Of a stretch of 64,000 bases of DNA, positions 1 through 20,205 are shown piece by piece. Every line of letters begins with the position of its first letter. Positions within the stretch are counted from its first letter, which is position 1. Position numbers and translations under genes: made by a program. The notes below the pieces were generated by a model. That model ran no database searches and was not told the DNA's origin. It worked only from the letters and a program-made list of their open reading frames with translations. Origin of the DNA: an uncultured Arenicella sp. GTDB taxonomy: Bacteria > Pseudomonadota > Gammaproteobacteria > Arenicellales > Arenicellaceae. The stretch spans positions 42,882-106,881 of the forward strand of contig CALIVT010000011.1 in assembly GCA_938048185.1 (NCBI GenBank), given 5' to 3'.

Positions 1-1420
1 CTCTAAAGGAATCCGCGAGCGAGAGCGAAAAACGCCACGCAGCGTTTGGGTCATAATGTAATTCTATTTTAGGTGACGCATGAGTAAAGCTGTCTTCTCG
101 GTCTGCTGGGCGGCTATAACGACACCCTCCAAAACCACATTCAGTACCATCATCGCGTGTTCGACCCGCCAAACTACGATTATCATAATCGTAATCAATG
201 CGCTCGAGTCTCGCACCTGCGCTTAAATGCCAACGTTCACTGATTGACCAATCCACGTGTGTGAACACGCCCAGTTGTTGCGCATCAACTTGGTAATCAT
301 AGTGCACGCCGGTTGGGATAGTCGCGATCAAAAAGGCGGAACCCTGTGTAGCTTCGGCTTGTGATTGCCGTAACTCGCTGTCGGTAAAATCAGCGTCAAA
401 ACCAATCGCTATGTCTAAGCGGTCGTTGAGCGCAAAGCGCAACGCTGATTGCCAGCCAAAACCACTTTGCGCGTTTTGCTCTAACGGATCACCGGGTAGA
501 AAATGAAGCAAAAAATCCATGTCGGTGTCACGCAAATACACCGCGCCATCGGCGCGTGTACCATTATCGAATTCACGCGATGCTTTAAGCCAAGCACGTA
601 GCGATTGTGTTTTTCGAAACGCATTCGGGTCAAGATTCTCACGTGCGAGCCGCGGGTCACGATAACTATCGAGTCCCACTATAAAGCCCGCAGTCTCTTG
701 ATCAAGATCGGTGTAGCTTGCGCCAACGTTTATCTGCCAGTCTCCCAAACCTGCGGCGTGCCGCCAGCTAAGCTTGCGTTGGGTATAACCGGCATCGTCG
801 CGATAGCCTCCGTCTTCGGTAATCGTGGCGTAAACCCGGCCGCCCTCGTAGGAGACTGCCGCCTGGCCGCGCACATAACTATTAGAGCCCGCTTCGATCG
901 CGAAATAATCGTCTCCTTGCGCGGGTAAGATCACATTAACGCTGCCGGTTAAGGCATTAGAACCGTAAAACGCGGAACTCGCCCCGCGCACAACTTCGAG
1001 CCGCTGTGCCGCTTCAAAATGCGTGTCAAACAGCTCGTTGACGTTACACGCCCCCGCGCCACGCACCGGAATAGTCTCTTCCATTATAAGCACGCTGCCA
1101 CATGCGCCAGCCCCGGTAAGTACCGCAGAACGTATACCAGGTAACGACTCTTGGCCACTGCCGCGCTGCAAGCTGACGCCCGGAACCCGACTTAAACTTT
1201 GTTGAATATGCACTGGCCGAACCCGCGCCAGTTCCTGAGCGTCAGCAACCGTAATATTGATTGATTGCTCATCAAGTGGCCGTTCAATACGAGAGCCGAT
1301 GACCGCGACTTCCTCTAATTCAACCGCAAATACATGGCTCGAAAATGCAGTGATACAGGCGCTCGCTATGAGCCCAGTGACAGGGGCGATAGACACGTAT
1401 CGCCCGATAAAATTGATCAT
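1..1420 (-). CDS. TonB-dependent receptor, 3' end runs off the window (absent from the ORF track)
   Basis: Hand translation from ATG at 1420: signal peptide MINFIGRYVSIAPVTGLIASACITAFSSHVFA, TonB-box-like VELEEVAVIGSR, plug motifs RVPGVSLQRG, GIRSAVLTGAGACGS and RLEVVRGASSAFYGSNALTGSVNVI. The frame was open in every segment I translated, down to base 2 (...HYDPNAAWRFSLSLADSFR). Confidence 0.9.
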   Translation of the reverse strand, partial: MINFIGRYVSIAPVTGLIASACITAFSSHVFAVELEEVAVIGSRIERPLDEQSINITVADAQELARVRPVHIQQSLSRVPGVSLQRGSGQESLPGIRSAVLTGAGACGSVLIMEETIPVRGAGACNVNELFDTHFEAAQRLEVVRGASSAFYGSNALTGSVNVILPAQGDDYFAIEAGSNSYVRGQAAVSYEGGRVYATITEDGGYRDDAGYTQRKLSWRHAAGLGDWQINVGASYTDLDQETAGFIVGLDSYRDPRLARENLDPNAFRKTQSLRAWLKASREFDNGTRADGAVYLRDTDMDFLLHFLPGDPLEQNAQSGFGWQSALRFALNDRLDIAIGFDADFTDSELRQSQAEATQGSAFLIATIPTGVHYDYQVDAQQLGVFTHVDWSISERWHLSAGARLERIDYDYDNRSLAGRTRDDGTECGFGGCRYSRPADREDSFTHASPKIELHYDPNAAWRFSLSLADSFR

Positions 1421-1492
1421 AGTTGGGATGCCGACGCACAAACGCGGCTTGCTATAAAGTTGACTACTTTAGCGTAGTTTACACTATGTGCG

Positions 1493-3028
1493 TCAACCTA
1501 CATTTGAATCCTCAAAACTGGCCTTACGCGCTTCCATATAGGCGATCAGTTTGGCGTCTATTTCCGCATCAAGTTCAGGCGCTTGGTAATCTGCTAGCAT
1601 CTTTTTGTACTGAGCATTGGCACGCGTTTGGGTGTCGGGGCTACCCGCTTCGACCCACGCTTCGTAGCTATTATTGTCGGACACCGTCGATGGGTAAAAT
1701 GCGGTCTTAAAGTTGCGCTGAGTGTGCTCACAACCCAAGAAATGCTGGCCCGGACCGACTTCACGCAACGCATCGAGCGCTTGACCGTTTTCGCTCATGT
1801 CCACGCCTTGCGCAGACACTCGCAACATGCCGGCCTGATCGGCGTCCATAATGAATTTTTCGTAGCCCATTGATAAGCCTCCCTCTAACCAACCTGCCGT
1901 GTGCAAGGCAAAATTAACGCCGGCATTAAGAGTTGCATTCAGTGTGTTTGCCGCCTCGTACCCGGCTTGAGCATCTGGTAGTTTGGACGACGTGAAACCA
2001 CCCCCACTGCGAAAAGGAACACCTAAACGGCGCGCTAAAGAGCCACCGATGTTCATTACTTGCGACGCCTCGGGCGTACCAAACGTGGGCGCACCAGATT
2101 GCATGGACATGGAACTTACAAAATTTCCGTAAATCATCGGCGCACCAGGACGCACCAATTGAATCAAAGACATACCGGCGAGGCCTTCGGCCAAGCTCTG
2201 AGCAGCGACACCTGCTGCCGACACGGGCGACATAGCACCGGCAACAATAAACGGGGTAACAATACAGGCTTGGTTATTACGCGCGTATACTTTCAGAGAC
2301 CCAACCATTGTGCCGTCAAATGCCATCGGCGAATTGGCATTAATTAAATTGATCATTACGCAATTTTGATCAACAAATTCGTCACCAAACACTATCTTAG
2401 CCATCGCGACTGAGTCTTCCGCACGCTCAGGCGCCGTCACCGACCCCATAAACGGCTTATCGGAATATTTAAGGTGGGCATAGACCATGTCGAAGTGGCG
2501 CTTATTCACCGGCAAATCGACCGGCTCACAGATAGTACCGCCCGAGTGATGCAAGTTGTCTGACATGTACGCCAGCTTCACAAAGTTGTTAAAATCTTCG
2601 ATGGTCGCGTAGCGACGCCCCCCGTCCAAGTCATAGACAAATGGCGGGCCATAGGCCGGCACTAACACCATATTATCGCCACCAATTTGCACGTTACGTT
2701 TGGGGTTTCGCGCGTGTTGGGTGAACTCTCGTTGTGCTGTCGCCTGAACTATATCGCGACACATACCGCGCGGAAACCGAATACGATCGCCGTCAATAGC
2801 CGCGCCCGCGTCACGGAAGATATCCAACGTTTCCTCATCGTCGGTAAAATCGATACCGATCTCTTCTAAAATAATTTCGGCGTTGTTTTCAATAATGCTC
2901 AGTGACGCGTCATCGAGCACCTCAAAGTAAGGGATCTTGCGTTGAATATAGGCAGGCGCGGTTGATTCCGCATTGGCTGCTTGCGCTGCTCGGCGGCTGC
3001 GACCGCCACCTCTTCGTTCTCTGGCCAT
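1493..3028 (-). CDS. MttB-family (trimethylamine methyltransferase superfamily) corrinoid methyltransferase, non-pyrrolysine
   Basis: 511 aa. MttB-like motifs RYATIEDFNNFVKLAY, HSGGTICEPVD, TPFIVAGAMSPVS, SGAPTFGTPE, KLPDAQAGYE, HTAGWLEGGL. No in-frame amber codon. Confidence 0.93.
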   Translation of the reverse strand: MARERRGGGRSRRAAQAANAESTAPAYIQRKIPYFEVLDDASLSIIENNAEIILEEIGIDFTDDEETLDIFRDAGAAIDGDRIRFPRGMCRDIVQATAQREFTQHARNPKRNVQIGGDNMVLVPAYGPPFVYDLDGGRRYATIEDFNNFVKLAYMSDNLHHSGGTICEPVDLPVNKRHFDMVYAHLKYSDKPFMGSVTAPERAEDSVAMAKIVFGDEFVDQNCVMINLINANSPMAFDGTMVGSLKVYARNNQACIVTPFIVAGAMSPVSAAGVAAQSLAEGLAGMSLIQLVRPGAPMIYGNFVSSMSMQSGAPTFGTPEASQVMNIGGSLARRLGVPFRSGGGFTSSKLPDAQAGYEAANTLNATLNAGVNFALHTAGWLEGGLSMGYEKFIMDADQAGMLRVSAQGVDMSENGQALDALREVGPGQHFLGCEHTQRNFKTAFYPSTVSDNNSYEAWVEAGSPDTQTRANAQYKKMLADYQAPELDAEIDAKLIAYMEARKASFEDSNVG

Positions 3029-3121
3029 GACAATGTCCTCTTTTTCTTCTATCGTTCTAAATTATCTAGCATGCTGCACGCGCAATTTTTTTTAACTATT
3101 TAGCGCGTATACGCTCTGCTT

Positions 3122-5125
3122 CTAAGATCGCCGTCGCCGACGATTTCTCTGTATTGATTGTGCCGCGATGGGCGACACCGAAAATTTCATACCGTCGACA
3201 AAGTAGTCTTGAAAATTCGGTTCGTTCGCGCTTTCAATTTTACGCACCAGCTTGACCGCCTCAATAATACGTTCGCGTTCGGTGATACTTAACAAAGCCT
3301 TGGTTGCACCAATGCCCGCGGCGTTTCCAACTGAGCTAATTTGGTCTTTCGTAGCGCTTGGAATAATATCGAGGTCAGCAACAAAGTCAGGGTCTAGATG
3401 CGCACCAAAGGCACCGGCCAACAGTACTTTATCAAACGCCTTGCAATCCAAATAATCCATCAATAATTGCACGCCCGCAGACAGCGCGGCTTTAGCAAGT
3501 TGAATAGACCGCACATCAGTTTGTTCGACATAAATTGAATTAGCACCCTGCTCTACCAGTAAAAAACGAACCGTATTACCATTACTATCAAAACGTTCTG
3601 GCGCGTTTGTTTGCACAAATAGACCGGTTTGGTCGATCAGGCCCGCTTTCGCTAACTCAACCATAACTTCGATAATACCCGAACCACAAATACCGATAAC
3701 GCGCGGCTGAGCTGCAGCAAAGCCATCTTGATCTGACCATGCATCGACGCCAATAACCTTGAAACGCACCTCGAATGTCTCAGGGTCTATTCGAATTCGC
3801 TCAATCGCGCCATGCGATGCGCGCACACCAGAGCTAATTTCAGCACCCTCAAAGGCTGGGCCGGTGGGCGACGAAGTGGCGTACACCACACCGTCTTTAG
3901 CCAACATGATTTCCGCGTTTGTTCCAATATCAACCAACAAGGTGGTTTGCGATTGCATGGTGTCGATTTCACTCAAATACGCTGCTGCTGTATCAGCGCC
4001 GACGTGACCAGCAATTAATGGTAAAAATGCCAATCGTGTGCTCGGAAATAGATCCAGGCCGATTTCCGCCGCCGTCATTTCTAACCACTCTCGGATCGCT
4101 AAGGTAAAGGGCGCCTGGCCTAACTCAACCGGTGAGATTCCGAAAAACAAATGATGCATGATCGGATTGCCGACTAGAACCACTTCCAACAATTTATCGT
4201 GTGTTAACGCTAATTGTTTGCAGGCTTCATGAAACATCTCGGTAAGCTTATTGCGTACCGCGTCGGTGAGTTTTTGCTCACCGCCTTTGTTCATCATTAC
4301 GTAGGAAACACGGCTCATCAAATCTTCGCCATACTGAATTTGCGGGTTCATGGCCGATGTTTCGTACAATAAATCGCCGCTGAGTAAGTCGTAAACGTAA
4401 ACGGCCAACGTTGTCGAGCCGATGTCTACCGCGGCGCCAACCACTCGTGTTTCACCTTGTGGGTACAGTGCTACAACGTGCGAGCTATCACGCACGACCA
4501 CACTTAATTTACCGCTAGTTTCATGCACCAAGGCATGCAAATTTGCGAGTAGCTTAGGGTGGACACTGGCATCAATAGACTGCTCGGCTAAGCGCTCAAT
4601 TAGGTTTTCAGTAACCGACGGGTTGGTGTCCATCGTGGCTTCTGCCAGCTCTACATCACATACCTGCAAGACTGGATTCAGGTCGAAATCGCGCGCGATG
4701 TTTTTCTTGCTGATGTAAGCCAAATTTTCTTGGCTGCGCTCGGGCACATCAATTAATACGTCGCCCAATACACGTGTGCGACAAGCAAGGCGCAAACCTT
4801 TGAACTTATCGTTACGCTGATACATGCGTTCTTCTAGATCCGTGACGGGCGACAAATTATCGGCCGACGATATCAAGCCATGTTTTGAGTGCGAGCCCTC
4901 TGATACGTCCACCCAACATTGACGACAATTGCCGTTGCCGCCGCATAATGAACGAATCGCGACACCGGTTGCCTGCGCGGTTTCCAGCAAGGTTGCGCCA
5001 AGTTCCGCCTCGGTCGACAAGCCGGATGGCGTAAAGACAACTCGTTTGGTTTCAGTAACCGGGTCGGCACACGGGTCAGTGCGCTGGCTCGCAGCTTGAT
5101 CAAGACTAGGGGCGGCGTCAGACAT
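3122..5125 (-). CDS. RamA/RACo-type ATP-dependent corrinoid reductive activase (2Fe-2S plus ASKHA/DUF4445)
   Basis: N-terminal 2Fe-2S motif CGGNGNCRQC...RLAC. ASKHA motifs AVDIGSTT, DIGTNAE, GPAFEGAEI, GICGSG, LAGAFG, VGNAAGIGA. Confidence 0.92.
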   Translation of the reverse strand: MSDAAPSLDQAASQRTDPCADPVTETKRVVFTPSGLSTEAELGATLLETAQATGVAIRSLCGGNGNCRQCWVDVSEGSHSKHGLISSADNLSPVTDLEERMYQRNDKFKGLRLACRTRVLGDVLIDVPERSQENLAYISKKNIARDFDLNPVLQVCDVELAEATMDTNPSVTENLIERLAEQSIDASVHPKLLANLHALVHETSGKLSVVVRDSSHVVALYPQGETRVVGAAVDIGSTTLAVYVYDLLSGDLLYETSAMNPQIQYGEDLMSRVSYVMMNKGGEQKLTDAVRNKLTEMFHEACKQLALTHDKLLEVVLVGNPIMHHLFFGISPVELGQAPFTLAIREWLEMTAAEIGLDLFPSTRLAFLPLIAGHVGADTAAAYLSEIDTMQSQTTLLVDIGTNAEIMLAKDGVVYATSSPTGPAFEGAEISSGVRASHGAIERIRIDPETFEVRFKVIGVDAWSDQDGFAAAQPRVIGICGSGIIEVMVELAKAGLIDQTGLFVQTNAPERFDSNGNTVRFLLVEQGANSIYVEQTDVRSIQLAKAALSAGVQLLMDYLDCKAFDKVLLAGAFGAHLDPDFVADLDIIPSATKDQISSVGNAAGIGATKALLSITERERIIEAVKLVRKIESANEPNFQDYFVDGMKFSVSPIAAQSIQRNRRRRRS

Positions 5126-5130
5126 TTGAA

Positions 5131-5535
5131 TTAATTATGCTCAATGGAGTCATCCCAACGCAGAAAACGAGTTTCATTTTGACTAATTTCATAATAGTCG
5201 CCTTTTTCACCAACAAATACATGACCACTAACTTCGAGCTGACTTGCGTCAGTCATACTGCCAGCAGTAATACTCAAGAATCGATTTTTATCATTGCGCC
5301 AAAATAGTTGCGAACCGCAGTCGGGGCAAAAACCATGACGCGAATTCTCAGAGACGTAATACCACTTAGGCTCACCACTGATCTTAATATCATCTAGGGC
5401 GACTTGTGCAGCGGCCATATAATGCCCGGTCATCTGTCGACATTGACGACAGTGGCAATACCATAGTGGCTTCGTCGCTTTCGACGTATACCCAATATTG
5501 CCACAACAGCAAGAACCCGAGATCGATTTTGACAT
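5131..5535 (-). CDS. GFA/CENP-V family zinc protein
   Basis: GSCCCG...CHCRQCR...GFCPDCGSQLF pattern. Start placed at ATG 5535 (MSKSISGSC) because the longer track ORF overlaps the upstream gene. Confidence 0.88.
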   Translation of the reverse strand: MSKSISGSCCCGNIGYTSKATKPLWYCHCRQCRQMTGHYMAAAQVALDDIKISGEPKWYYVSENSRHGFCPDCGSQLFWRNDKNRFLSITAGSMTDASQLEVSGHVFVGEKGDYYEISQNETRFLRWDDSIEHN

Positions 5536-5552
5536 AATCGTAGGCCCGATTT

Positions 5553-6452
5553 TTACGCTCGTCGACGTCGACTGCGACGCCGGCTTTCGCCCACCTCGCC
5601 CTCTTTGGCGGGCTCGCGATAATTCAAAATCCACTGCTGGCAATCAGGGTCATTAAACGCCAATACATCGGCGGCTCTGACAGCCTGCACTAACCCATCA
5701 TGCAAGGGGTTAACAATAGCTGAGGTCATTCCTGCGCCAATTGCCATCGGTAGAAAGGCATTGTTTATGCCGTGTCTGTTCGGTAGGCCGAAACTGATAT
5801 TTGACGCGCCACAGGTAGTGTTCACCTTAAGTTCTTCGCGCAGACGCTTACATAAAGCAAACACTTGATTGCCGGCGCCGCCGATGGCTCCAATTGGCAT
5901 CACTAACGGATCAATCACAACATCTTGGGCTTTGATACCATAGTCCGCTGCGTGCTCGACGATGCGCTTGGCGATTTCAAAACGCACATCAGGGTCTTCT
6001 GAGATACCGGTTTCGTCGTTCGAGATTCCGACCACCGCGGCATCGTATTTTTTAACCAAGGGCAGCACTCGTTCAAGTACCTCTACTTCGGCCGTAGTCG
6101 AGTTGACCAAGGCACGGCCTTGGTAGGCGGCCAAACCCGCTTCGAGGGCTTCGATAATTGATGAGTCGATGCACAAAGGCACATCAACCACTGCTTGTAC
6201 GCGACGAATAGCTTCCGCCAAAATCGCCGGCTCGTCGGCAAGTGGTATGCCTGCATTTACATCCAGCATTTGTGCACCCGCCGCAACCTGTGCGATGGCA
6301 TCGGATTCTACTCGGCTGTAATCGCCCTCTTTCATCTCAGCTGCGAGGATTTTGCGCCCAGTTGGGTTTATGCGCTCACCAATCATGGTAAAGGGGCTGC
6401 CAAAGCCGATGATAACTTCTTTATTGGGTGACGATAAAACGGTCTTAGTCAT
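5553..6452 (-). CDS. Methyltetrahydrofolate:corrinoid methyltransferase (stand-alone pterin-binding domain of MetH type)
   Basis: IGERINPTGRK, GAQMLDVNAG, PLCIDSS, ALVNS, IDPLVMPIGA, GASNISFGLP motifs. Confidence 0.92.
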   Translation of the reverse strand: MTKTVLSSPNKEVIIGFGSPFTMIGERINPTGRKILAAEMKEGDYSRVESDAIAQVAAGAQMLDVNAGIPLADEPAILAEAIRRVQAVVDVPLCIDSSIIEALEAGLAAYQGRALVNSTTAEVEVLERVLPLVKKYDAAVVGISNDETGISEDPDVRFEIAKRIVEHAADYGIKAQDVVIDPLVMPIGAIGGAGNQVFALCKRLREELKVNTTCGASNISFGLPNRHGINNAFLPMAIGAGMTSAIVNPLHDGLVQAVRAADVLAFNDPDCQQWILNYREPAKEGEVGESRRRSRRRRA

Positions 6453-6500
6453 GGCGTATCTCGCTTAATGTTATTCTACTATTTTGATTATTACGTTGAT

Positions 6501-7502
6501 CTAGTAACCGGGAGCCCAAACCTGCCGGCCATCTAGCACTCCAGATTGTCTGACCATTTCAGCAACATACTTTTCTTGACGGTATGCCATGACGTGTACG
6601 CCACTGATGCCCTCAATTTCTTTGCATTGCTGCATCAGTTCTACGCATATTTTTTGACCTTCGGCCTTTTGATTTTCAGCGCCTTCAAGCCGCTGAATCA
6701 GTTCATCCGGAATATGTACTCCGGGCACATTTGTGCGCAACCAACGTGCAGTATTCGCCGATGCCAAGGTACCCACGCCGGCCAAAATAAACGCTTTCTC
6801 GGTAAGGCCCATATCAACCGAACGCCGCATCATGTCGCGCAACACTGGCAAGTCAAAACAGTATTGGGTTTGAATAAACTCAGCACCTGCCGCAACTTTT
6901 TTTTGTAACTGACGCACCCGGTTTTCAATCGGCGGAACAAACGGGTTAATGGTAGAACCCGCAAATACCTTTGGCGCTTTGTCTAATTTACGACCACTCA
7001 GAAAACGCGACTCGTCACGCATGGTACGAATAGTAGTAAGCAAGGATATGCTGTCTAAATCAAAGACCGGCTTTGCCTCAGGGTGATCACCCGCCGACAC
7101 ATCATCACCACTCAAAGCCAGCACATTGCATACGCCCATTGCCGCGGCACCGAGTACGTCCCCTTGAATCGCGATGCGATTTTTATCGCGACACGAAATT
7201 TGTAAAATTGGCGAATAACCAACATGTGATAGTAAAGCGCAAACCGCGACGCTCGACATGTGGCAATTAGCCCCAGAACCATCAGTCGCGTTTATGGCAT
7301 CGCACACGCCATCAAATAGTGCGGCACGTTCATACACTTGATCGGCGTCGGCGGAATCTGGCGGCGCTATCTCGCTGGTCACCACAAAGTGGCCTTGACG
7401 CAATACACGCTCAAATCGACCTTGCGAGACGTGCCCGACGGCCTCGGGTAACGGACTGCCTAGATTATCAACCGGTGGATGTTGACTCGCTTGAGCGTTC
7501 AT
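6501..7502 (-). CDS. metF: Methylenetetrahydrofolate reductase
   Basis: VTSEIAPP, NATDGSGA, LQISCRDKNRIAIQ, LALSGDD, KVAAGAEFIQTQYCFD, GVHVMA motifs. Confidence 0.9.
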   Translation of the reverse strand: MNAQASQHPPVDNLGSPLPEAVGHVSQGRFERVLRQGHFVVTSEIAPPDSADADQVYERAALFDGVCDAINATDGSGANCHMSSVAVCALLSHVGYSPILQISCRDKNRIAIQGDVLGAAAMGVCNVLALSGDDVSAGDHPEAKPVFDLDSISLLTTIRTMRDESRFLSGRKLDKAPKVFAGSTINPFVPPIENRVRQLQKKVAAGAEFIQTQYCFDLPVLRDMMRRSVDMGLTEKAFILAGVGTLASANTARWLRTNVPGVHIPDELIQRLEGAENQKAEGQKICVELMQQCKEIEGISGVHVMAYRQEKYVAEMVRQSGVLDGRQVWAPGY

Positions 7503-7981
7503 ACTTCGGCCTTGCTAACGCTTTTGGTAGCACGATTAGTACCCCCCTCTTTCGCGAGTCGTATCCAAGCGCTGCTACCCTTATGTTGATGATTTGGCGC
7601 GAACTGAATAAGCTCAATTTCTTGGGCATGCTTCATTTTTTGAGAGCCGCTCCAAGCATCAACCCAAACACATTTCATTTCCGGTTTTACCTCACAATTA
7701 CCGTTCGCGCGCACACCACCGCAAGGGCCGTTACGAATCGTCTTAGGGCAATTCATCGGACACGTCATGCCGGTACTCGAAAGCACGCAATTGCCGCACA
7801 TTTTGCAATCAAACAACGCGCCTTTAACCTGTTTCTCAAACCATGTCACCGGGGCATCAAGCTTGCTACCAAAGAGTTTATTGAAAACCGTCAGCGTCGC
7901 TAAGATAATCGGGCTGCTCGCGTTATAGACCATTTCATAGGCCCGCGCATGACGTGTGGCAAAGCGTCTAAGCTGGTACAT
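7499..7981 (-). CDS. MTHFR C-terminal/MetV-like cysteine-rich small subunit
   Basis: FDCKMCGNCVLSSTGMTCPMNCPKTIRNGPCGGVRANGNCEVKPEMKCVW. ATGA overlap with metF. RBS AAGGTG precedes ATG 7981. Confidence 0.88.
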   Translation of the reverse strand: MYQLRRFATRHARAYEMVYNASSPIILATLTVFNKLFGSKLDAPVTWFEKQVKGALFDCKMCGNCVLSSTGMTCPMNCPKTIRNGPCGGVRANGNCEVKPEMKCVWVDAWSGSQKMKHAQEIELIQFAPNHQHKGSSAWIRLAKEGGTNRATKSVSKAEV

Positions 7982-8654
7982 GTTGCACCTTAATAGAGTC
8001 AAGCGCGGTTGCGGGGGCTAAACCATCGAAGCCAACGAATTGGTAGCGATACGCTAAACCCAACACTTCGGCGTGCCGTTTTGCGTCTTGTTGCAACTGG
8101 GGGTCCTCCGTTTGAGCCAGGTACACTAGCTGCGTGTAGTGCTTAAAATATTCATCTTTAAGTTCTGGATAGCGGTCAATGCCCAAGCCTTGAATCACAA
8201 AGCGGTCAAAAAACTTGACCAAAAAATCAGTTAAGAAAAAGCTGCCTAATTCTTTATCGACAATATCTTGATAGTTTTGAGCGCCAGCGAAAAATTCGTA
8301 ACAATGCGCGCCTGGCAAACGTTCGGCCTTGTGTTTTTCCAAAACCGTGTCTAGTGCGCCGGCCGTGCCACAGTCGCCGTAAGCAACAAACACACTTTGA
8401 TAATCAGCGGCGTGCTGATCAAGATATTTATCGACTTCGCCCGCAATCAACTGCGGTGTATTATGCAAATGAGCCGGCAAACACTGTAAATCTATGAACT
8501 CGTCGAGTTCGGGATTGTGTTTAATTAATTCGACTAGCTCATAAACCAGTGCGCCGCAGGCGAGCACTAAGCGCTTGGGCGCCGCACTCTTTGCAGTGAT
8601 ACCCGACGCCCCTGTAATCGAGTTGTGCGGTAGCGTTGCGGTTAACAATGGCAT
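7968..8654 (-). CDS. DUF1638 family protein (corrinoid reactivation accessory)
   Basis: LACGAL, CLPAHLHNTP, VAYGDCGT, HCYEFFAG, FFLTDFL motifs, plus its position between corrinoid protein and metF genes. Confidence 0.85.
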   Translation of the reverse strand: MPLLTATLPHNSITGASGITAKSAAPKRLVLACGALVYELVELIKHNPELDEFIDLQCLPAHLHNTPQLIAGEVDKYLDQHAADYQSVFVAYGDCGTAGALDTVLEKHKAERLPGAHCYEFFAGAQNYQDIVDKELGSFFLTDFLVKFFDRFVIQGLGIDRYPELKDEYFKHYTQLVYLAQTEDPQLQQDAKRHAEVLGLAYRYQFVGFDGLAPATALDSIKVQHVPA

Positions 8655-8681
8655 AGCGACTCGATCCGATTTACAAAGCCG

Positions 8682-9377
8682 CTAAGCGGCTTGAACGCTC
8701 TTCGCGTAGGTCTGTGCCATTTCGGCGCTGCGGGCAGCGTCGCGGCCGTAGGCATCGGCACCAATTGCATCTGCGAACTCTTGGTTAAGCGGCGCGCCGC
8801 CACACATCACATGAAAGTCATTACGCATACCGCGCTTATCTAACTCTTCAATAACAACGCCCATATAAGGCATGGTGGTTGTTAACAGTGCTGACATTCC
8901 CATGATGACGGGTTTGTGTTCGTCGATCGCTTCAAGGTAGTTCTCAACCGGGTTATTAATACCCAGGTCTATCACCTCAAACCCCGCACCTTCGAGCATC
9001 ATGCCGACCAAGTTCTTACCAATATCATGGATATCGCCTTTGACCGTGCCGATTACAAACTTGCCCAATGACAGGTCGACTGAGCTATTCGCCAAAATAG
9101 GTCTTAGCAACCCCATACCCTGTTTCATGGCGCCAGCGCACTTAAGCACCTCGGGCACGAACAAAATACCATCACGAAAGTCTTCACCAACGATTTTCAT
9201 GCCACCGACTAGCGCATCGCCTAGAATGTCGTTTGCATCCCAATCCCGACCCAGCAATATCTCTACGCCTTCAAATACTTCGTCGTTTAAGCCATCGTAA
9301 AGGTCGTCTTGAATTTGTTCGACAAGTTCTTTATCGTCCAAATCAGCCAATTCAAAATCGTCTTCTTGTTCACTCAT
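8682..9377 (-). CDS. Stand-alone corrinoid (B12-binding) protein
   Basis: Cap domain GMKIVGEDFRDGILFVPEVL, B12 motif GTVKGDIHDIGKNLV, MSALLTTTM, CGGAP. Confidence 0.94.
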   Translation of the reverse strand: MSEQEDDFELADLDDKELVEQIQDDLYDGLNDEVFEGVEILLGRDWDANDILGDALVGGMKIVGEDFRDGILFVPEVLKCAGAMKQGMGLLRPILANSSVDLSLGKFVIGTVKGDIHDIGKNLVGMMLEGAGFEVIDLGINNPVENYLEAIDEHKPVIMGMSALLTTTMPYMGVVIEELDKRGMRNDFHVMCGGAPLNQEFADAIGADAYGRDAARSAEMAQTYAKSVQAA

Positions 9378-9527
9378 ATTTCGTGCCTAGCCCCAGATAT
9401 AAACCCAAATAACCGCTTGAATAACTGCGCAACCTCACCGGCGTAAGGTTTTGCTCTATTTACTCGATTGTGTGTTATAGATCGCCGACTCAGTGTCCAG
9501 ATTGCGACATTTACTTACACAGTCAAA

Positions 9528-10112
9528 TCAATTTTCACCATATCTGGCACGCTGTTCGGCATCCAGTGCCTTAGGGACGGCAAACACGCGCTGAAGCAGC
9601 GGTTTAAAAAACGCCAGGGGCTCAGAGTCATACTCTGGGTCAAAGCAGTTTTGATCGTATTCATGGCAGAATTTGACTGCGCTGTCGTAGTATCGGTGAT
9701 CCTTAAATTGATCCCGTGCATTGCGATCTCCACCGCAATGGTGCGCGTAGTAATACATCTGAAAAAGGCCGTGGTGTTTTATAACCCAATACACCTCGTC
9801 ACTGACGAAGGGTCGGAGTACCGCGGCGGCCATCTCGCTGTGTGAATACGTGGCCAGCTCATCGCCAATGTCATGCAATAGTGCTGCGGCGACCCATTCA
9901 TCGGACTCGCCCGCTCGGTGAGCACGCGTAGCCGCCTGCAAGACATGCTCTAAACGCGATATTTTGTAGCCCGATAGCGTTTCCTCTAGTGCCGCGAGCG
10001 CGGTCAATAAGCGCTGCGGAAGATCGAGCTTGTACTGGTCTTCGAGTTGGTCAAGGTAAGCGTAATCCTCAGCCGTGCCATCCTGCATTTTTGTAAAGCT
10101 GACTTTTTTCAT
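9528..10112 (-). CDS. HD-domain metalloprotein, probable diiron oxygenase (MIOX/PhnZ/TmpB superfamily)
   Basis: Ligand pattern LEH...LLHDIGD...YSHS...KHHG...YDQNCFDP. ATGA overlap with the upstream dioxygenase. Confidence 0.8.
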   Translation of the reverse strand: MKKVSFTKMQDGTAEDYAYLDQLEDQYKLDLPQRLLTALAALEETLSGYKISRLEHVLQAATRAHRAGESDEWVAAALLHDIGDELATYSHSEMAAAVLRPFVSDEVYWVIKHHGLFQMYYYAHHCGGDRNARDQFKDHRYYDSAVKFCHEYDQNCFDPEYDSEPLAFFKPLLQRVFAVPKALDAEQRARYGEN

Positions 10113-11233
10113 TTTTTCATTAGCATGCGTAACCGACTCAAGACATCATCATAGTCCATATATGAGAGTTGCAAGTGGCGACCACCGCTATCGGCGTCAT
10201 AGGCATTGCGACCGTGCATAACACGCAAATTGTTGGTCGCCATAATATCGCCGGTGTTGAGACGAAACTGCACCTTATTCTCGGGCGCTTCAACCAACGT
10301 ACCCAGTTTGCGATAGGCTCGGTAAAATGCATCCATTTGCTCAGGCGCAATGTTCGCTGGCTGCGCCAGTTGGTTTGAAAAGCGAAAGACTTTCAAGTTG
10401 CCATTAACATCGAGTGTGAGCAGTGGGTTACTGTTAATAATGTCACCGCGATCGCTAAACATGCGGAACCGAACCGGTGTGCTCGATAGTATCTTGAACG
10501 CGTCGGGGTCTCGCTCTTGCAATTGTCGAACCACCATCGCGCCATCGACTGCAGTGCTCTCGCCACCCACGCTATCATTTTGCAAAAAATGAAACATCTG
10601 TACGCCGGGCGGATTATTGTAGTTTGGCATGTCAGTATGCGGCTTTAACTCTAGGGTAGTGGAAGCAACGTTATACGCATTGTACTCACCGGGTGTCGCA
10701 CGCACGTTGTGCAAACGGTCGTAGATGGTCTCGCGTACACAGCCAACATGCTCAGCAAAGCGTTCAATTTCTCCTTCGTTACTCGGCGCGCCACGAATGA
10801 TGGTCAAGCCATAGTCGCGTATCGACTCACACCATGCGCGCAAGGCAGCGTCGCTCTGATACAGCTCACGGTACTGAAAGGTGGGAATACTGCTCTCGAA
10901 TTCTCTACCCCATACTCTCGGCATGAAACCCGATGTCGCGGGGTCGTCTGTAAACGAACCCTGACTGTAATCATGCTGGCTCAACCAGCTTAAGTCGTAA
11001 ACGCTCACATGGTTGGATTGATTCCACCGCACTTTAAGTTTTTGTTCATCAAGCGATGCAGAGCTCGCGGCGATATCAAGTGGAATATCGGCACTGACTA
11101 GAATACGTTCCTTGGTATCGGAGTGGCAGCACTCGTTGCAGTTGCAATTGTCACGCAACCAGACGTAATGAAACTCAGCCTCAGGATTAGAGTCAAGAGG
11201 AAGCTGCAAAGTCGATGCATTCAAATTAACCAT
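10109..11233 (-). CDS. Gamma-butyrobetaine/trimethyllysine hydroxylase-like Fe(II)/2OG dioxygenase (TauD family)
   Basis: N-terminal WLRDNCNCNEC...HVSVY Zn-site pattern (C30, C32, C35, H75), HTD iron motif (LKPHTDMPNY), distal NLRVMHGRNAY. Confidence 0.9.
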   Translation of the reverse strand: MVNLNASTLQLPLDSNPEAEFHYVWLRDNCNCNECCHSDTKERILVSADIPLDIAASSASLDEQKLKVRWNQSNHVSVYDLSWLSQHDYSQGSFTDDPATSGFMPRVWGREFESSIPTFQYRELYQSDAALRAWCESIRDYGLTIIRGAPSNEGEIERFAEHVGCVRETIYDRLHNVRATPGEYNAYNVASTTLELKPHTDMPNYNNPPGVQMFHFLQNDSVGGESTAVDGAMVVRQLQERDPDAFKILSSTPVRFRMFSDRGDIINSNPLLTLDVNGNLKVFRFSNQLAQPANIAPEQMDAFYRAYRKLGTLVEAPENKVQFRLNTGDIMATNNLRVMHGRNAYDADSGGRHLQLSYMDYDDVLSRLRMLMKK

Positions 11234-11379
11234 AGCGACAAATCGATAAGCCGTTGATGATCATCTGAGAATACCCCCAGCTTTAGCCGGAAAACATCAC
11301 CAACGCGACCCGCTATGCTTGGAATGCGTCACTAATTAAACCCAATCGTGCACGCTCTACTTACCTATCCAAGCCCAGA

Positions 11380-12315
11380 CTAGTCGGCCTCGTCTAAAAG
11401 CAAATTAATAACCGGTGGCAAGCGACCTCCGTTTTCAGGGTTGCTTGGCGGTGTCGGCGGACTGGGAGGCGCGACCACTAAAGGCTCAGCCAAAAGGTTC
11501 ATTACTTCGCGCAATATAGCGGTATTTGCTTGTTCTTCGATATCTGATCCAGGTCCATCGTTCCACATCGGTTGCCGGTCAAACATAACGATAATATCTC
11601 CCTGCTCGACCCGGCGACGCGCAAGCGCAGCAAAATTCGGATTTGCAATAGTTAGCCCCTGACGCTGGTCAACGTCGTTGGTATAGGGAATCAGTATCTC
11701 AACATCGGCGTTCGCTGGCGCAATAGCGACCGGCGATACACCCTCACCTTCGATAACTAAATTCCGAATAGCCGCAATGGATGCAGAATTAGCCGCTGTG
11801 GCAGCGCGCACACCGTCAGCTTGATCAACCGTCACTTGCATACCGTATTGACGAATCAAATTATTAGTGACATTTTGACCAATCGGGTTTTGCGCCCCAC
11901 CAGGAACCTGGCGAAAGGAACCGCCCGACGCCGAATCACTGTAGATAAACATGCCACCACCGGCCTTCAACCAAAGGTCGAGTGCAGACCTCTCAGCAGA
12001 CGACCAAATCTTTTGATGTAAACCAAATATCACGGCATCATAGTTATTTAAAAAATCTGAGTTCAAACTAACGCTGGTATCTCTGAACTGAACAAGGCTA
12101 TGACCTTGGCTTTCCATCAAAAGCTTGAATTTCGACAAACCCTTATCACCAGAATCGGTGATAAGCATCTGATCAAAAGGGTTTCCTTCACCCTCGTCCA
12201 GGACTGTGCCATTGGCCGCAACGCGTCCATGGATGTACGCGATATCACCGGCCAGAAGCCCGCTCGATTGAAGCGTGCTACTCAGCAACACAAAACCTAA
12301 AATTATATATTTCAT
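11380..12315 (-). CDS. Secreted protein with a class I glutamine-amidotransferase-like/DUF4350-like domain, Pro-rich linker and hydrophobic-acidic C-terminal tag
   Basis: Signal peptide MKYIILGFVLLSSTLQSSGLLA; YDAVIFG...LDLWLKAGGGMFIYSD; C-terminus APPSPPTPPSNPENGGRLPPVINLLLDEAD. Confidence 0.65.
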   Translation of the reverse strand: MKYIILGFVLLSSTLQSSGLLAGDIAYIHGRVAANGTVLDEGEGNPFDQMLITDSGDKGLSKFKLLMESQGHSLVQFRDTSVSLNSDFLNNYDAVIFGLHQKIWSSAERSALDLWLKAGGGMFIYSDSASGGSFRQVPGGAQNPIGQNVTNNLIRQYGMQVTVDQADGVRAATAANSASIAAIRNLVIEGEGVSPVAIAPANADVEILIPYTNDVDQRQGLTIANPNFAALARRRVEQGDIIVMFDRQPMWNDGPGSDIEEQANTAILREVMNLLAEPLVVAPPSPPTPPSNPENGGRLPPVINLLLDEAD

Positions 12316-12404
12316 ACTATGCTCGATTTAACACCACCCAAGCACGCGACTCGTACGACTAAGATAGTGGCAAAAAAACAGGTGGTGGCCAAAAAAACGA
12401 GTAT

Positions 12405-14990
12405 CTAGTGTTGGCTCGCTTTTTGGAAGCTGATTGAGCTATCTTTAACCGTAACCATAACCACATCGCCACCAATAAAGTCACCGGCCAGCAAGTGATG
12501 TGCCAGCGGGTTTTCAAGTAAGTCTTGGATACTGCGCTTAAGCGGTCGCGCTCCATACACGGGGTCAAACCCGGCGTCGGCAACTAAATCTAGAGCCGCA
12601 TCACTGACATCCAATTTGATGTCCTGCTTGAGCAAGCGCTTAATTAAAATTTTCATTTGTATACTGGCAATTTTTCTAACTTGATCTTTTGCTAACGCAT
12701 GAAATACCACGATATCATCAACACGATTAATGAATTCAGGCCGAAAATGCGCGGTCACGCTTTCCATTACTGCGGCTTTCATTACAGCGTAGTCGCCTTC
12801 AAGCTCATGCACTCGTTGCGAACCAAGGTTTGAGGTCATGATGATTACGCAGTTTTTAAAATCCACCGTTCGACCTTGACCATCAGTGAGGCGACCATCG
12901 TCCAACACCTGTAAAAGGATATTAAAGACATCTGGGTGCGCCTTCTCGACTTCGTCTAGTAGAATCACAGAATACGGCTTGCGGCGTACGGCCTCGGTCA
13001 GATACCCGCCCTCTTCATAACCAACGTAGCCTGGGGGCGCACCGATTAAGCGCGCGACTGAATGCTTCTCCATAAATTCTGACATGTCGATGCGAACCAT
13101 GGCTTCGTCAGTATCAAACATAAACTCGGCGAGCGCTTTGGTTAACTCAGTTTTACCGACGCCCGTTGGGCCGAGAAACATGAACGAGCCCGAAGGTCGA
13201 TTCGGGTCAGACAAGCCAGCACGAGAGCGACGAATAGCGTCGGATACGGCCGTGATCGCTTCGTTCTGACCGATAACTCGCTTGTGCAGATTCTCTTCCA
13301 TTTGTAACAGCTTGTCGCGTTCACCCTGCAACATCTTAGAAACCGGAATGCCTGTCCATGCAGCGACCACATCGGCAATCTCTTCTTCTGTTACGTTGCT
13401 GCGCAACAACTGGTTTTCAGCGCCATTTTGCTCGTTGCTTTGGGCTTTGGTGAGTTGTTTCTCCAGCTCTGGAATCACCGCATATTGCAGCTCAGACATC
13501 TTTGCCAAGTTACCTGCACGCTGCGCCATTTCCATTTCAATACGCGCGGCTTCGAGTTCTTCTTTGATGTGTTGAACACCATGAACCGCCGACTTTTCGG
13601 CCATCCATATTTCGTTTAACTCACCAAACTCTCGCTCTAATTCGGCAATTTCACTTTCGAGTTTTTGCAGACGTTTCTTAGAGGCATCATCGCTCTCTTT
13701 AATCAGCGCCTCGCGCTCGATCTTACGGCGAATAATTCGACGCTCGAGCTTGTCCATCGATTCAGGTTTAGAATCAATTTCCATACGAATACGACTGGCG
13801 GCTTCATCGATTAAGTCAATCGCTTTATCGGGCAAGTTACGGTCGGCAATATACCGGTGTGACAAGGTAGCCGCCGAGATAATCGCCGGGTCGGTAATAT
13901 CCACGCCATGGTGCACCTCGTACTTTTCTTTCAAACCACGAAGAATGGCGATGGTGTCTTCTACACTGGGCTCGTCCACTATTATTTTTTGAAAGCGTCG
14001 TTCCAGTGCGGCATCTTTCTCAATAAACTGACGATACTCGTCGAGTGTTGTTGCACCAACGCAATGCAATTCACCGCGTGCAAGCGCGGGCTTCAGCATG
14101 TTACCCGCGTCCATAGCGCCTTCGGCTTTACCGGCACCGACCATGGTGTGAATTTCATCGATAAACAAAATGACTTGCCCTTCTTGCTTCGATAAATCCT
14201 TGAGCACTGCTTTTAGTCGCTCTTCGAACTCGCCTCGAAACTTGGCACCCGCAATCAAAGACCCTAGATCCAGCGATAACAGGCGTTTACTTTTTATGCC
14301 CTCAGGGACTTCGCCGTTGACAATCCGTTGCGCCAAGCCTTCGACAATCGCCGTTTTACCCACACCGGGCTCGCCGATTATGACCGGGTTATTTTTGGTG
14401 CGACGTTGTAAAACCTGAATGGTGCGGCGTATCTCATCATCGCGACCAATGACCGGGTCGAGCTTACCTTCCTCGGCGCGCGCGGTTACGTCGATCGTAT
14501 ACTTCTCGAGAGCCTGCATGTTGTCTTCGGCATTCGCATCGTCGACGTTTGCACCGCCGCGCACCGCCTCAACAGCTTTGTTCAAAGACTCTAATGTAGC
14601 GCCCGCTTCACGCAGAAGCACGCCCGCTGTATCTTTATCTTTAACTAGGGCCAGCAAAAATAGATCGCTGGAAATAAACGAATCACCCCGCTCTTGAGCG
14701 AGCTTATCGGCGACATTAATAAGGCGCGCGGTTTGTTGAGACAAGTGCACTTCGCCGGCCTGCCCTTGTACCTGAGGCATTTCGTTTAAGGTTTTATCTA
14801 ATAGGTCGCTCAAGGCTTTATCTTGCACCCCAACTCGCGCTAATAATGGGCGGACGCTACCACCTTCTTGTTGAAACATAGCGGCCAAGACGTGGGTAGG
14901 CTCAATAAATTGGTGGTCTTTGCCCACCGCCATACTTTGCGCGTCGGCTAAGGCGAGCTGAAATTTTGATGTTAACTTGTCCATTCTCAT
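12405..14990 (-). CDS. clpB: ATP-dependent chaperone ClpB
   Basis: 861 aa. Two AAA modules ([16 protein letters not shown]), [13 protein letters not shown], coiled-coil middle domain, [13 protein letters not shown]. Confidence 0.98.
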
Positions 14991-15041
14991 TACGATTACC
15001 TCGAAGGCATGAGTTTTCTCTACTGTAATATACTTAACTAT

Positions 15042-15069
15042 ATTTAGGGCAGCTTACTCGAAAAGCAAG
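15042..15069 (-). promoter_or_regulatory. Possible sigma-32 promoter of clpB
   Basis: Minus strand CTTGCT-N14-CCCTAAAT resembles the RpoH consensus CTTGAA-N13-17-CCCCATNT and lies about 50 nt before the clpB ATG. Confidence 0.35.
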
Positions 15070-15156
15070 CACGGAATTTGTCGGTAATTCCAGCTTTCTG
15101 CTATTCTGGCGCTTAAGCTCAACACCCTAATCTAGCAACCTTGCTGAGAGTACGTC

Positions 15157-16017
15157 ATGTCACACCCACTGCCTCGAAAAAAAGTCATCAAACGCCTTGT
15201 CAAAAACTGCCTGCGCGAAGACATCGGCAGCGGCGACGTCACCGCACGCTTAACGCCGAAGAAAAGTGAGGTTGACGGTAAGATCATTAGTCGAGAACAA
15301 GGGGTTATCTGCGGCGTCGCCTGGGTAGACGAGGTATTTAAGCGTATAGGCCAGCGACATAAGACCACCATTGAGGTTGACTGGAAAATAAAAGACGGCG
15401 ACATAGTCGAACCCGATCAAACCCTATGCCGCTTCGAAGGCTATGCACACCCGATTCTTTCTGGCGAGCGCACTGCGCTGAATATTATGCAAACCTTGTC
15501 GGGCACCGCGACTGTCACGCGTCAATATGCGGATGCCATAGCCCACACCAAAGCGCGCCTGCTCGACACCCGCAAAACACTACCGATGATGCGCGAAGCG
15601 CAAAAATACGCCGTGCTATGCGGCGGCGGCGTGAACCATCGCATGGGCTTGTACGACGGCATTATCATTAAAGAAAACCATTTACGCAGTGGCAAAAGCC
15701 TAGAACGAATTGTTACCGACGCAATTGCGTCGATGCCCGAAGGCGCGCTAGTAGAACTGGAAGTCGAAACAATCGAGGAGCTTGAACGCGGGCTACACGC
15801 AGGTGCAAAACGAATTATGCTGGACGATTTCAGTATGGACGATATGCGCCTTGCGGTTGAACTCACCGGCGAGCAAGCAGACCTTGAAGCCTCTGGTAAC
15901 GTCAATATCAAAACCATTGCCGCAATTGCCGAAACCGGCGTCGATTTTATCTCATCTGGGGCGATTACTAAGCACGTGCGCGCGCTGGATTTATCCATGT
16001 TGTTTGATTATCGCTAG
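15157..16017 (+). CDS. nadC: Nicotinate-nucleotide pyrophosphorylase (carboxylating)
   Basis: EDIGSGDVT, ERTALN, LLDTRKTLP, NHRMGLYD, IKENH, IMLDDF, EASGN, ISSGAITK. Confidence 0.97.
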   Translation: MSHPLPRKKVIKRLVKNCLREDIGSGDVTARLTPKKSEVDGKIISREQGVICGVAWVDEVFKRIGQRHKTTIEVDWKIKDGDIVEPDQTLCRFEGYAHPILSGERTALNIMQTLSGTATVTRQYADAIAHTKARLLDTRKTLPMMREAQKYAVLCGGGVNHRMGLYDGIIIKENHLRSGKSLERIVTDAIASMPEGALVELEVETIEELERGLHAGAKRIMLDDFSMDDMRLAVELTGEQADLEASGNVNIKTIAAIAETGVDFISSGAITKHVRALDLSMLFDYR

Positions 16018-19245: not shown

Positions 19246-19408
19246 TTGCCAAGCTTTCAGTTGTGATACATAAAACCGGCGTATCTGAACTAACCAGTCT
19301 GTCTACAAACCTCAATAGAACCAACCTCTGTTCACACTATTTAACAACACCGAAGCCGGCCGTTTGTTAGGCTGAATTGCACCTAAATTGAGATTAATGG
19401 AGAACAAC

Positions 19409-20101: not shown

Positions 20102-20147
20102 TATTGGTGTTTAAGTGTTACAAAAGCACTAAATAGTAATCAGCAGT

Positions 20148-20184: not shown

Positions 20185-20205
20185 ATTTCTTCGCTAAGAA
20201 AAAGC

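Follow-up and report, generated by a model that had tools for sequence, protein, structure and literature searches.

Why should a marine gammaproteobacterium place two O2-dependent iron enzymes at the head of a gene block whose remaining members form an O2-sensitive Co(I) cycle? The question is raised by ten genes (11233..1493, minus strand) in a stretch of 64,000 nucleotides (nt) from an uncultured Arenicella sp. (contig CALIVT010000011.1); this whole stretch is called the window below, and all positions are counted in it. Related proteins and contigs place the host near Arenicella, and the DNA sequencing runs that contain the region are marine metagenomes only. In our opinion the block is probably a catabolic unit of two modules, a cassette of the MtgBCD type and an oxygenase pair that would make betaine or a less methylated glycine for it. 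The possibly new part is the pair, an Fe(II)/2-oxoglutarate (2OG) dioxygenase and an HD-domain protein of the TmpAB/PhnYZ type; the corrinoid core is a system already known. A preliminary description of this DNA listed ten co-oriented genes with their domains, and the coordinates of the open reading frames (ORFs), together with Pfam and NCBIfam, bear this out: all ten lie on the minus strand. The arrangement is not a product of chance, because the set is found again in many genomes and contigs that are independent of each other.

The same description pointed to the joining of aerobic oxygenase chemistry and Co(I) chemistry in one unit. Both are indeed encoded here, but Co(I) cobalamin chemistry in an aerobe is already known, because it was shown genetically in Ruegeria pomeroyi in 2025. 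Mausz et al. (PNAS 2025; PMC12478193) described MtgBCD(E) in this species, in Phaeobacter inhibens and in Sinorhizobium meliloti, whose cluster they named MtgBCDE. R. pomeroyi can neither grow on glycine betaine nor make methionine without the corrinoid protein MtgC and the pterin-binding protein MtgD, and MtgB (pfam06253), MetF2, RamA and DUF1638 are induced on N-osmolytes, MetF2 most of all (PMC12478193). We judged orthology with this known system against S. meliloti and Paracoccus sequences. In S. meliloti and Paracoccus methylovorus the order is MttB (on the opposite strand), corrinoid protein, DUF1638, MetV-like protein, MetF, methyl-tetrahydrofolate (methyl-THF) methyltransferase, a small ORF and an ASKHA activase; this matches the window, and seven window proteins are 42-67% identical to the cluster proteins, with the order conserved. 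A non-Pyl MttB, separate MtgC and MtgD, a RamA-type activase, DUF1638 and a MetF paralogue are all present, the host is aerobic as well, and by these homologies the corrinoid core is of the aerobic MtgBCD kind. It differs from the published cassettes in that its host is a gammaproteobacterium, in that the conserved block of the window type includes a GFA gene and a TonB-dependent receptor gene, in that no MtgE lies near the cluster, and in the attached dioxygenase-HD pair, of which the paper by Mausz et al. makes no mention.

The corrinoid protein (8682..9377, minus strand, as are all features below unless stated otherwise) has the Pfam domains B12-binding_2 and B12-binding and a DxHxxG motif that reads DIHDIG. 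Its best NCBIfam match is the glycine-betaine MtgC, at 197.7 bits against a cut-off of 370, and it stays under both MtgC cut-offs; it is 64.6-66.8% identical to the S. meliloti and Paracoccus proteins. DUF1638 (7968..8654; Pfam, 93.8 bits), an accessory of corrinoid reactivation in such systems, has the identical position in the two alphaproteobacterial clusters. The MetV-like small cysteine-rich subunit, of the MTHFR C-terminal domain family (7499..8002, likely start ATG 7981; Pfam DUF5981, 89.8 bits), is 48-51% identical to its homologues there, and the MetF2-type methylene-THF reductase (6501..7502; Pfam MTHFR, 115.4 bits) 63%; the latter is predicted to run towards methyl-THF oxidation. 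The MtgD-like methyl-THF:corrinoid methyltransferase (5553..6452; Pterin_bind) exceeds the cut-off of its model (NF005719, 362.7 bits against 259) and is 62-65% identical to its S. meliloti and Paracoccus counterparts. It is followed by a Zn/Cys protein of the GFA family (5131..5534; Pfam GFA, 67.8 bits), glutathione-dependent formaldehyde-activating-like, whose gene has an equivalent place in all gammaproteobacterial clusters examined. The next gene encodes an ATP-dependent reductive activase of the RACo/RamA kind (3122..5125) with an N-terminal 2Fe-2S domain and an ASKHA part (Pfam RACo_C_ter 244.8 bits, Raco_middle 152.9 bits, RACo_linker, Fer2), 42-43% identical to the ASKHA proteins of the two clusters. 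The label RamA, given to it at first, needs a correction: RACo/AcsV models fit the protein better than the methanogen RamA model (TIGR04270, 84 bits against a cut-off of 500).

The last gene encodes an MtgB-like methyltransferase of the MttB superfamily (1493..3028; 511 amino acids; Pfam MTTB PF06253, 749 bits), which is of the non-Pyl type because the ORF is uninterrupted and spans the Pfam model end to end. Its match to the S. meliloti structure 4YYC has 704 bits, and that to Desulfitobacterium hafniense MtgB (2QNE/9YCE) 447 bits. The crystallographic contacts of the latter enzyme to glycine betaine are Y97, R312, H348 and F356 (PMC13080624). Three of the four, Y97, R312 and H348, are kept in the window protein, and glycine betaine is probably its methyl donor. 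The anaerobic systems (MtgB/MtgC of D. hafniense; MtcB, MtpB and MtyB of Eubacterium limosum) likewise combine an MttB-superfamily enzyme, a corrinoid protein, a methyl-THF methyltransferase and a RamA-type activase, but the window differs in its aerobic host, the linked O2-dependent enzymes, the replaced F356 and a corrinoid protein of the proteobacterial type.

By homology and synteny with the system of R. pomeroyi and S. meliloti, a course of events can be proposed for the first module (9377..1493). The MtgB-like MttB would take one methyl group from glycine betaine and load it onto the Co(I) corrinoid protein, and the pterin-binding MtgD would hand it on to THF; MetF and its MetV-like partner would oxidise methyl-THF to methylene-THF, for one-carbon (C1) oxidation or assimilation; and the activase, with DUF1638, would re-reduce the Co(II) formed in air in an ATP-dependent manner. 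The corrinoid part had been read at the outset as catabolic methyl harvesting of the MtgB type, which homology and synteny support. It is possible to argue instead that the corrinoid genes are chiefly a split methionine synthase, made of MtgC, MtgD and a distant MtgE, with MttB and the oxygenases as peripheral methyl-donor options. Indeed, R. pomeroyi becomes auxotrophic for methionine when mtgC or mtgD is mutated, and MetH is missing from most genomes that have MtgBCD (PMC12478193); in S. meliloti, bmt (MtgE in the terms of Mausz et al.) lies near the cluster. However, Pfam finds no homocysteine-binding domain in any of the ten genes (the other ORFs of the window were annotated in part), and MetF/MetV and GFA, together with the dimethylglycine dehydrogenase (DMGDH)-like and formate-THF ligase genes that adjoin the cluster in sister genomes, point to methyl oxidation, so that we consider this explanation very improbable. 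The absence of MtgE is uninformative either way, since mtgE usually lies elsewhere, while MtgBCD genes of Alpha-, Gamma- and Deltaproteobacteria often cluster with genes for the later demethylations (PMC12478193), as they do in the relatives of the window. Methionine synthesis and catabolism are, moreover, not exclusive roles: Ruegeria MtgC and MtgD serve both, and hence the choice between the two, in which the preliminary description found catabolism the better fit, is a false dichotomy.

What, then, would the two oxygenases contribute? The first (10109..11233) is an Fe(II)/2OG dioxygenase of the BBOX/TmpA/TMLH clade, with a Pfam TauD match of 155.9 bits and an N-terminal GBBH-like domain (GBBH-like_N) that carries CxCxxC. 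In BBOX, the CxCxxC of this domain is a zinc site. JGI and NCBI annotate the protein as BBOX, a name that we reject on the grounds of cut-off and active site. The BBOX model TIGR02409 is its best NCBIfam match, but the score of 319.5 bits is under the cut-off of 414.75; the TmpA model NF049936 gives 308.7 bits, under its cut-off of 400. TmpA (6NPB) and human BBOX match the protein equally well, at about 190 bits each, TmpA being the best sequence match in the PDB (191 bits).

For the active site we aligned 17 homologues of the dioxygenase (44-100% identity) with TmpA and BBOX. The asparagines that bind the acid group are N191/N293 in BBOX and N187/N287 in TmpA, where R288 contacts the phosphonate, as quoted in PMC9296572. 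The window protein retains H202, D204, H347 and R360 (the Fe ligands and the 2OG arginine), both asparagines N191/N293, and Y177 and Y366 of the aromatic cage. In its subfamily W181 is invariably changed to His, N292 to Ser and Y205 to Met or Leu, and Y194 is Ser, or His or Gln in distant members, so the BBOX cage Y177/W181/Y194/Y366 reads Y/H/S/Y in the window protein. TmpA R288 is replaced by Gln in 17/17 subfamily members aligned. Because it stays under both cut-offs and has these active-site residues changed, the dioxygenase represents a distinct subfamily. Its residues suggest that the substrate is neither gamma-butyrobetaine nor, probably, 2-(trimethylammonio)ethylphosphonate (TMAEP), and the missing phosphonate arginine is a weak hint of a carboxylate. 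A trimethylammonium substrate, as first proposed, is not required, since two of the four cage aromatics are replaced. A further difference from BBOX is genomic: an HD oxygenase gene lies 3' of genes of the window subfamily, and this is not so for true BBOX genes.

That gene encodes the second oxygenase (9528..10112). Databases name it a phosphohydrolase, and we reject this because of its fold. In a Foldseek search with the AlphaFold2 model (pLDDT 90), ranks 1-12 among PDB matches are held by PhnZ, TmpB and MIOX only, with TM-scores of 0.61-0.70 for PhnZ/TmpB; the first HD hydrolase appears at an E-value of 0.26 and a TM-score of 0.17. Across 37 sequences the six ligands H56, H80, D81, H91, H114 and D158 never vary and D153 hardly does, and H91 and H114 align to TmpB ligands. 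A mixed-valent diiron oxygenase of a new subfamily is therefore predicted. Its sequence is distant from PhnZ/TmpB (E-value about 1e-4, about 20% identity) and scores 38.5 bits with the TmpB model NF049941 (cut-off 300) and 40.3 bits with the PhnZ model TIGR03276 (cut-off 214.6). PhnZ and TmpB have a substrate-gating loop YxxE (PMC8177086); it is missing from the HD protein, where L46 and Y49 occupy the aligned positions. The invariant Y49 stands at the site of PhnZ E27/TmpB E33, which contacts the substrate nitrogen. From the modelled fold, the enzyme is predicted to cleave a hydroxylated product oxidatively. The family is large: an exhaustive HMMER search gave 189 clusters (at 50% identity) at an E-value of at most 1e-30, with members in SUP05, Arenicellales and sponge symbionts.

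The closest parallels are two-gene cassettes, TmpA/TmpB and PhnY/PhnZ, in which an Fe/2OG hydroxylase is likewise followed by an HD-domain diiron oxygenase. TmpA and TmpB of Leisingera caerulea, with (R)-hydroxy-TMAEP as the intermediate, were reportedly described by Rajakovich et al. in 2019. TmpAB converts TMAEP to glycine betaine and phosphate (PMC10574752), and the betaine is the substrate of the MtgB-type enzyme that adjoins the pair in the window. Hence, the pair might be an isofunctional TmpA/TmpB, which mineralises TMAEP mainly for its phosphate and leaves glycine betaine as a by-product for the cassette. The sequence and fold matches named above favour this idea, and M3AEP is common in marine organisms (PMC10590968). 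However, both proteins fall far under the curated TmpA and TmpB cut-offs, the BBOX model scores as high as that of TmpA, and the phosphonate arginine, two cage aromatics and the YxxE loop are lost; the dioxygenase also retains the BBOX-like N-terminal CxCxxC, in which it differs from TmpA. In related loci with annotated neighbours we saw no phosphonate transporter genes, but instead betaine transporters and genes of carbon and nitrogen catabolism. On balance we think it unlikely that the pair is TmpAB itself.

If the substrate is a carboxylate betaine, the chemistry needed here has a precedent in another 2OG hydroxylase and HD oxygenase: SmaO/SmaX turns Asp into beta-hydroxy-Asp and then into aminomalonate, by C-C cleavage of an alpha-hydroxy-carboxylate (JACS 2025, PMC12186529). 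SmaX differs in having a single Fe site, a reduced ligand set and a peptide substrate, whereas the window HD protein keeps the full six-ligand diiron motif. By analogy with TmpAB, PhnYZ and SmaOX, in the second module (11233..9528) the dioxygenase would hydroxylate the acid-bearing carbon of an onium-type osmolyte, and the HD enzyme would carry out a four-electron oxidative cleavage. The carboxylate that remains would most likely be glycine betaine or a glycine with fewer methyl groups, and would enter the first module. Candidate substrates are N-methylated 2-aminoethylphosphonates, beta-alanine betaine and a hydroxy-betaine. We would go one step further only tentatively, and suggest that the pair may be an undescribed oxygenase route which, by C-C or C-P cleavage, leads to glycine betaine or less methylated glycine from a marine osmolyte that is not TMAEP, the candidates being beta-alanine betaine, a partly methylated aminoethylphosphonate, and carnitine or another hydroxy-betaine, and that the HD family may be a widespread and unrecognised gateway of N-methylglycine catabolism in ocean bacteria. 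Our literature search found no paper that describes the dioxygenase-HD pair or its link to MtgBCD.

Do the two enzymes really form one unit, and how close is their link to the corrinoid genes? A scan with the HD protein, one genome per species, gave 80 loci (numbered with L below), nearly all labelled Gammaproteobacteria, which we surveyed by tblastn and ORF clustering. The order of the window (a protein of 311 amino acids, dioxygenase, HD, corrinoid protein through to MttB and a TonB receptor) recurs in L007 and L012. In a second order a DMGDH-like gene is followed by corrinoid protein, dioxygenase, HD, DUF1638 and so on to MttB, often with formate-THF ligase alongside (L001, L009, L013, L017, L018 and L021, and, through look-ups with the dioxygenase, L094-L098); here the gaps are 2-100 nt, and therefore the pair lies inside the operon. 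As a side observation, in L097 a GbcA-like Rieske oxygenase (137.8 bits, far under its cut-off) and an aldehyde dehydrogenase follow MttB (19188-21134).

The contexts of the HD gene were counted in 57 loci flanked on either side by 5 kb or more, a set that was selected mainly by HD similarity, includes some duplicate contigs and owes 15 loci to dioxygenase homologues. The dioxygenase and the corrinoid cluster are both present in 11/57, the corrinoid cluster without the dioxygenase in 3/57, and the dioxygenase-HD pair alone in 6/57; a divergent MttB (25% identity) with a DMGDH-like gene accompanies HD in 18/57, soxBDAG, for heterotetrameric sarcosine oxidase, in 10/57 and a DMGDH-like gene only in 1/57, and 8/57 have none of these. 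Altogether, 49/57 have a MttB, DMGDH-like, sox or dioxygenase gene at a distance of 10 kb or less. The synteny that had been proposed as a check of the gene set thus has a mixed outcome, with the pair in the corrinoid cluster of the 11 loci, HD without its partner in the 3, and cassettes without the pair in Alphaproteobacteria.

A metagenome scan with the dioxygenase gave 3 short loci only, and its homologues were then examined individually: at 44-52% identity they have a member of the HD family (51-54% identity) immediately downstream. In L086 the pair adjoins a BCCT transporter gene and an operon with a true carnitine dehydrogenase (718.8 bits, above the cut-off); it stands next to a LysR gene in L090 and is divergent from an OpuA-type betaine ABC transporter in L099; the one exception is L088, where a dioxygenase homologue stands without HD beside a TRAP binding protein. 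L086 also has a second, separate GBBH-like gene inside the carnitine operon. Eight natural fusions of 597-701 amino acids, TauD (with or without GBBH-like_N) joined to HD, occur among the HMMER clusters. These are P0262, P0283, P0284, P0333, P0338, P0351, P0358 and P0359, and their dioxygenase signatures differ, being TmpA-like with Arg or Lys, BBOX-like or window-like; P0351 has the active-site signature of the window subfamily. The N-terminal extension of P0358 resembles a eukaryotic organelle-targeting sequence. Given the fusions, the gene overlap (the dioxygenase stop and the HD start share ATGA) and the repeated adjacency, sequential action of both enzymes is most likely.

Against this it could be said that the HD protein works independently, as an entry or accessory enzyme of N-methylglycine catabolism that acts on an environmental hydroxylated compound (a hydroxy-betaine or amino alcohol), and that the dioxygenase is unrelated or optional and its product not a substrate of MttB. 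HD does follow soxBDAG directly in SUP05-type loci, and the divergent MttB and DMGDH-like genes in many others, with no dioxygenase; it opens the corrinoid cluster, after eno, in L052 and L035; and in Cocleimonas the presence or absence of the dioxygenase is the sole difference between L010 and L019. A word-based search (E-value at most 0.001) returned 6140 HD-family proteins against 442 for the dioxygenase, counts that are not strictly comparable. However, wherever the dioxygenase is present it lies immediately 5' of HD in all contexts but L088, the fusions join both domains, and even in L053 a 2OG dioxygenase of the PhyH type precedes HD. The deepest HD branches are dioxygenase-paired as well: in a midpoint-rooted neighbour-joining tree the context types form clades, and paired HD proteins stand at the base and in the Arenicella/Cocleimonas clade, which fits ancestral pairing with later loss of the dioxygenase, though the rooting is insecure. 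Further, absence of a dioxygenase from 10-kb flanks is not absence from the genome. We therefore doubt that the HD protein is independent, and rate this even lower than identity with TmpAB. Because HD is retained in loci that lack the dioxygenase, the dioxygenase product cannot be its sole substrate; a substrate must also be available directly or through another hydroxylase. Within the two-module unit, the HD enzyme would then also have a job of its own, and the role of the dioxygenase would be accessory, making further precursors usable.

Several HD neighbourhoods deserve description for themselves. In SUP05/Thioglobus-type loci (L022, L025, L028, L050, L054, L061, L063, L064, L067-L069, L080-L082) HD (about 10001-10588) stands directly after soxBDAG, soxG being last; upstream are a GbcB-like reductase (364 bits, under the cut-off) and an M24 creatinase-like gene, and downstream is dsbB. 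These flanks contain neither a Rieske partner nor a 2OG dioxygenase. Another recurrent cluster (L002-L004, L024, L027, L029-L033, L039, L040, L042, L047 and others) has a LysR gene on the opposite strand, the divergent MttB (25% identity to that of the window), a DMGDH-like gene, HD, a gene of the diaminopropionate ammonia-lyase family (502.7 bits, above the cut-off), an M24 hydrolase and dsbB; upstream are genes for 5-formyl-THF cyclo-ligase and for D-glutamate cyclase-like and 5-oxoprolinase-like (LamB_YcsF/CT_C_D/CT_A_B) proteins. Mere positional conservation of HD near dsbB may explain some of the SUP05-type synteny, but not the embedding in corrinoid operons or the fusions. In L053 (9086-10591), from a sponge symbiont (Poriferihabitaceae), the PhyH-family gene 5' of HD is neither TauD nor GBBH-like, and the surrounding genes encode two MttB proteins, a transporter of the MFS type and a DMGDH-like protein. 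Homologues of the DMGDH, sox, diaminopropionate-lyase-like and M24 genes were not found by tblastn in the rest of the window.

The spacing of the ten genes bears on whether they are transcribed together. The short gaps and overlaps first described hold for ATGA and for the 4 nt shared by the MetV-like and MetF genes. The apparent overlap of the GFA and pterin genes is an artefact, because the longest ORF, which reaches 5643, was taken, while the likely start is ATG 5534; and there are gaps of about 150 nt 5' of the dioxygenase gene and between the HD and corrinoid genes, besides one of 93 nt 5' of MttB. The two larger gaps share the 10-mer TGWCGCAWTC. Copy 1 (11322..11331), about 90 nt 5' of the dioxygenase start, is a candidate operator or promoter, and copy 2 (9500..9509), within TGTCGCAATCTGGACA in the HD-corrinoid gap, is a candidate internal one. 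In the window, in L007 (8740, 10601) and in L012 (8580, 10475), the 10-mer precedes the dioxygenase gene and also the corrinoid gene by about 100-170 nt, and in L008 (9128) it stands 5' of the corrinoid gene; copy 2 is kept in 7/7 loci with HD-corrinoid adjacency, including those without the dioxygenase. There are 21 matches in the 1.5 Mb of fetched loci, at least 7 of them at the two positions, and 3 matches in the window against 0.85 expected. Promoter and terminator scans scored no better than expected from shuffled sequence and placed nothing in the gaps between the genes. With its own upstream region and the 150-nt gap after it, the pair could form a separate transcript; the recurring 10-mer suggests two promoter regions under one regulator. 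Separate transcription of the pair, which had been named as an observation that would speak against a common function, may thus be half true, but with co-regulation.

The two-module unit has to be weighed against a number of less favourable points, which we gather here. Neither oxygenase reaches any curated cut-off for TmpA, TmpB or BBOX, and both activities are predictions. The HD gene is often without an adjacent dioxygenase, and 3/14 corrinoid clusters at the species level keep HD only; both oxygenase genes are absent from the alphaproteobacterial MtgBCD cassettes examined. In MttB the position of F356 is Gly (GWLEGG, as in 4YYC), with a Trp four residues earlier. Genes for the dimethylglycine and sarcosine steps were not found in the window, and no inner-membrane transporter was seen in the cluster or in the window, whose ORFs were annotated in part; the system is hence not self-contained, as it had been called. 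RNA sequencing runs containing the region were looked for, and none was found. On the other side stand the fold, the gene overlap, the paired recurrence, the fusions and the embedding in corrinoid operons. All in all, the inference of the preliminary description, that two iron enzymes feed MttB, is plausible and partly supported, co-conservation with the corrinoid genes being partial.

The gene 5' of the dioxygenase (11380..12315) encodes the 311-residue protein mentioned above, which has no Pfam family at the default threshold, only weak DUF4350/ThuA-like matches (E-value about 2e-3). Its hydrophobic N-terminal stretch MKYIILGFVLLSSTLQSSG is, judged by eye, signal-peptide-like. Orthologues (63-68% identity) stand upstream of the dioxygenase in L007 and L012, and as a member of the system the protein is doubtful; clpB lies further upstream. 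On the other side, 72 nt 3' of MttB, a TonB-dependent outer-membrane receptor gene (1..1420; plug and beta-barrel) runs off the window. Its best NCBIfam matches are weak (BtuB 63 bits, far under the cut-off), orthologues (63-75% identity) are found directly 3' of MttB in L007, L012 and L052, and the receptor is a candidate importer of cobalamin or of the substrate. In Rfam nothing rises above threshold in positions 1-16000, and no cobalamin or THF riboswitch is seen there, the 72-nt gap included; together with Pfam, this upholds the initial observation that the cluster lacks a cobalamin riboswitch, a homocysteine-binding domain and an inner-membrane transporter. Weak Rfam matches to Chlorobi-1 (E-value 0.015) and PYLIS (E-value 0.84) were taken as chance. 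The former, a small RNA match at 9411-9454 on the minus strand (23 bits against a gathering threshold of 50), falls in a part of the HD-corrinoid gap that is unconserved in related loci. At 17 kb from the block the window has an NAD-dependent formate dehydrogenase (29107-33557, plus strand; a Nuo51-like subunit of 517 amino acids and a molybdopterin subunit of 966), which is outside our finding and could complete the oxidation of methyl-derived C1 units to CO2. A block of four genes at 43266-47413 (minus strand), for a DUF819 membrane protein, a 2OG-Fe(II) oxygenase (DIOX_N and 2OG-FeII_Oxy), a PfkB kinase and a nucleoside hydrolase, is unrelated to the betaine locus.

Carbon, nitrogen and methyl groups pass between phytoplankton and bacteria to a major extent as glycine betaine and its onium relatives among the osmolytes, and the betaine demethylation route of most marine bacteria was identified only in 2025. 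If the pair feeds this route, a new precursor pool, phosphonate or carboxylate betaines, would be added to the marine betaine cycle. A function would also be found for a large family annotated as HD phosphohydrolases and for proteins mis-annotated as gamma-butyrobetaine dioxygenases, and the small set of known HD-domain oxygenases would gain another substrate class. The locus is, further, an example from nature in which an O2-sensitive Co(I) cycle is encoded together, and probably co-regulated, with iron enzymes that depend on O2. Finally, the association of the HD family with N-methylglycine catabolism is consistent across abundant marine lineages, and in this it offers a concrete lead.

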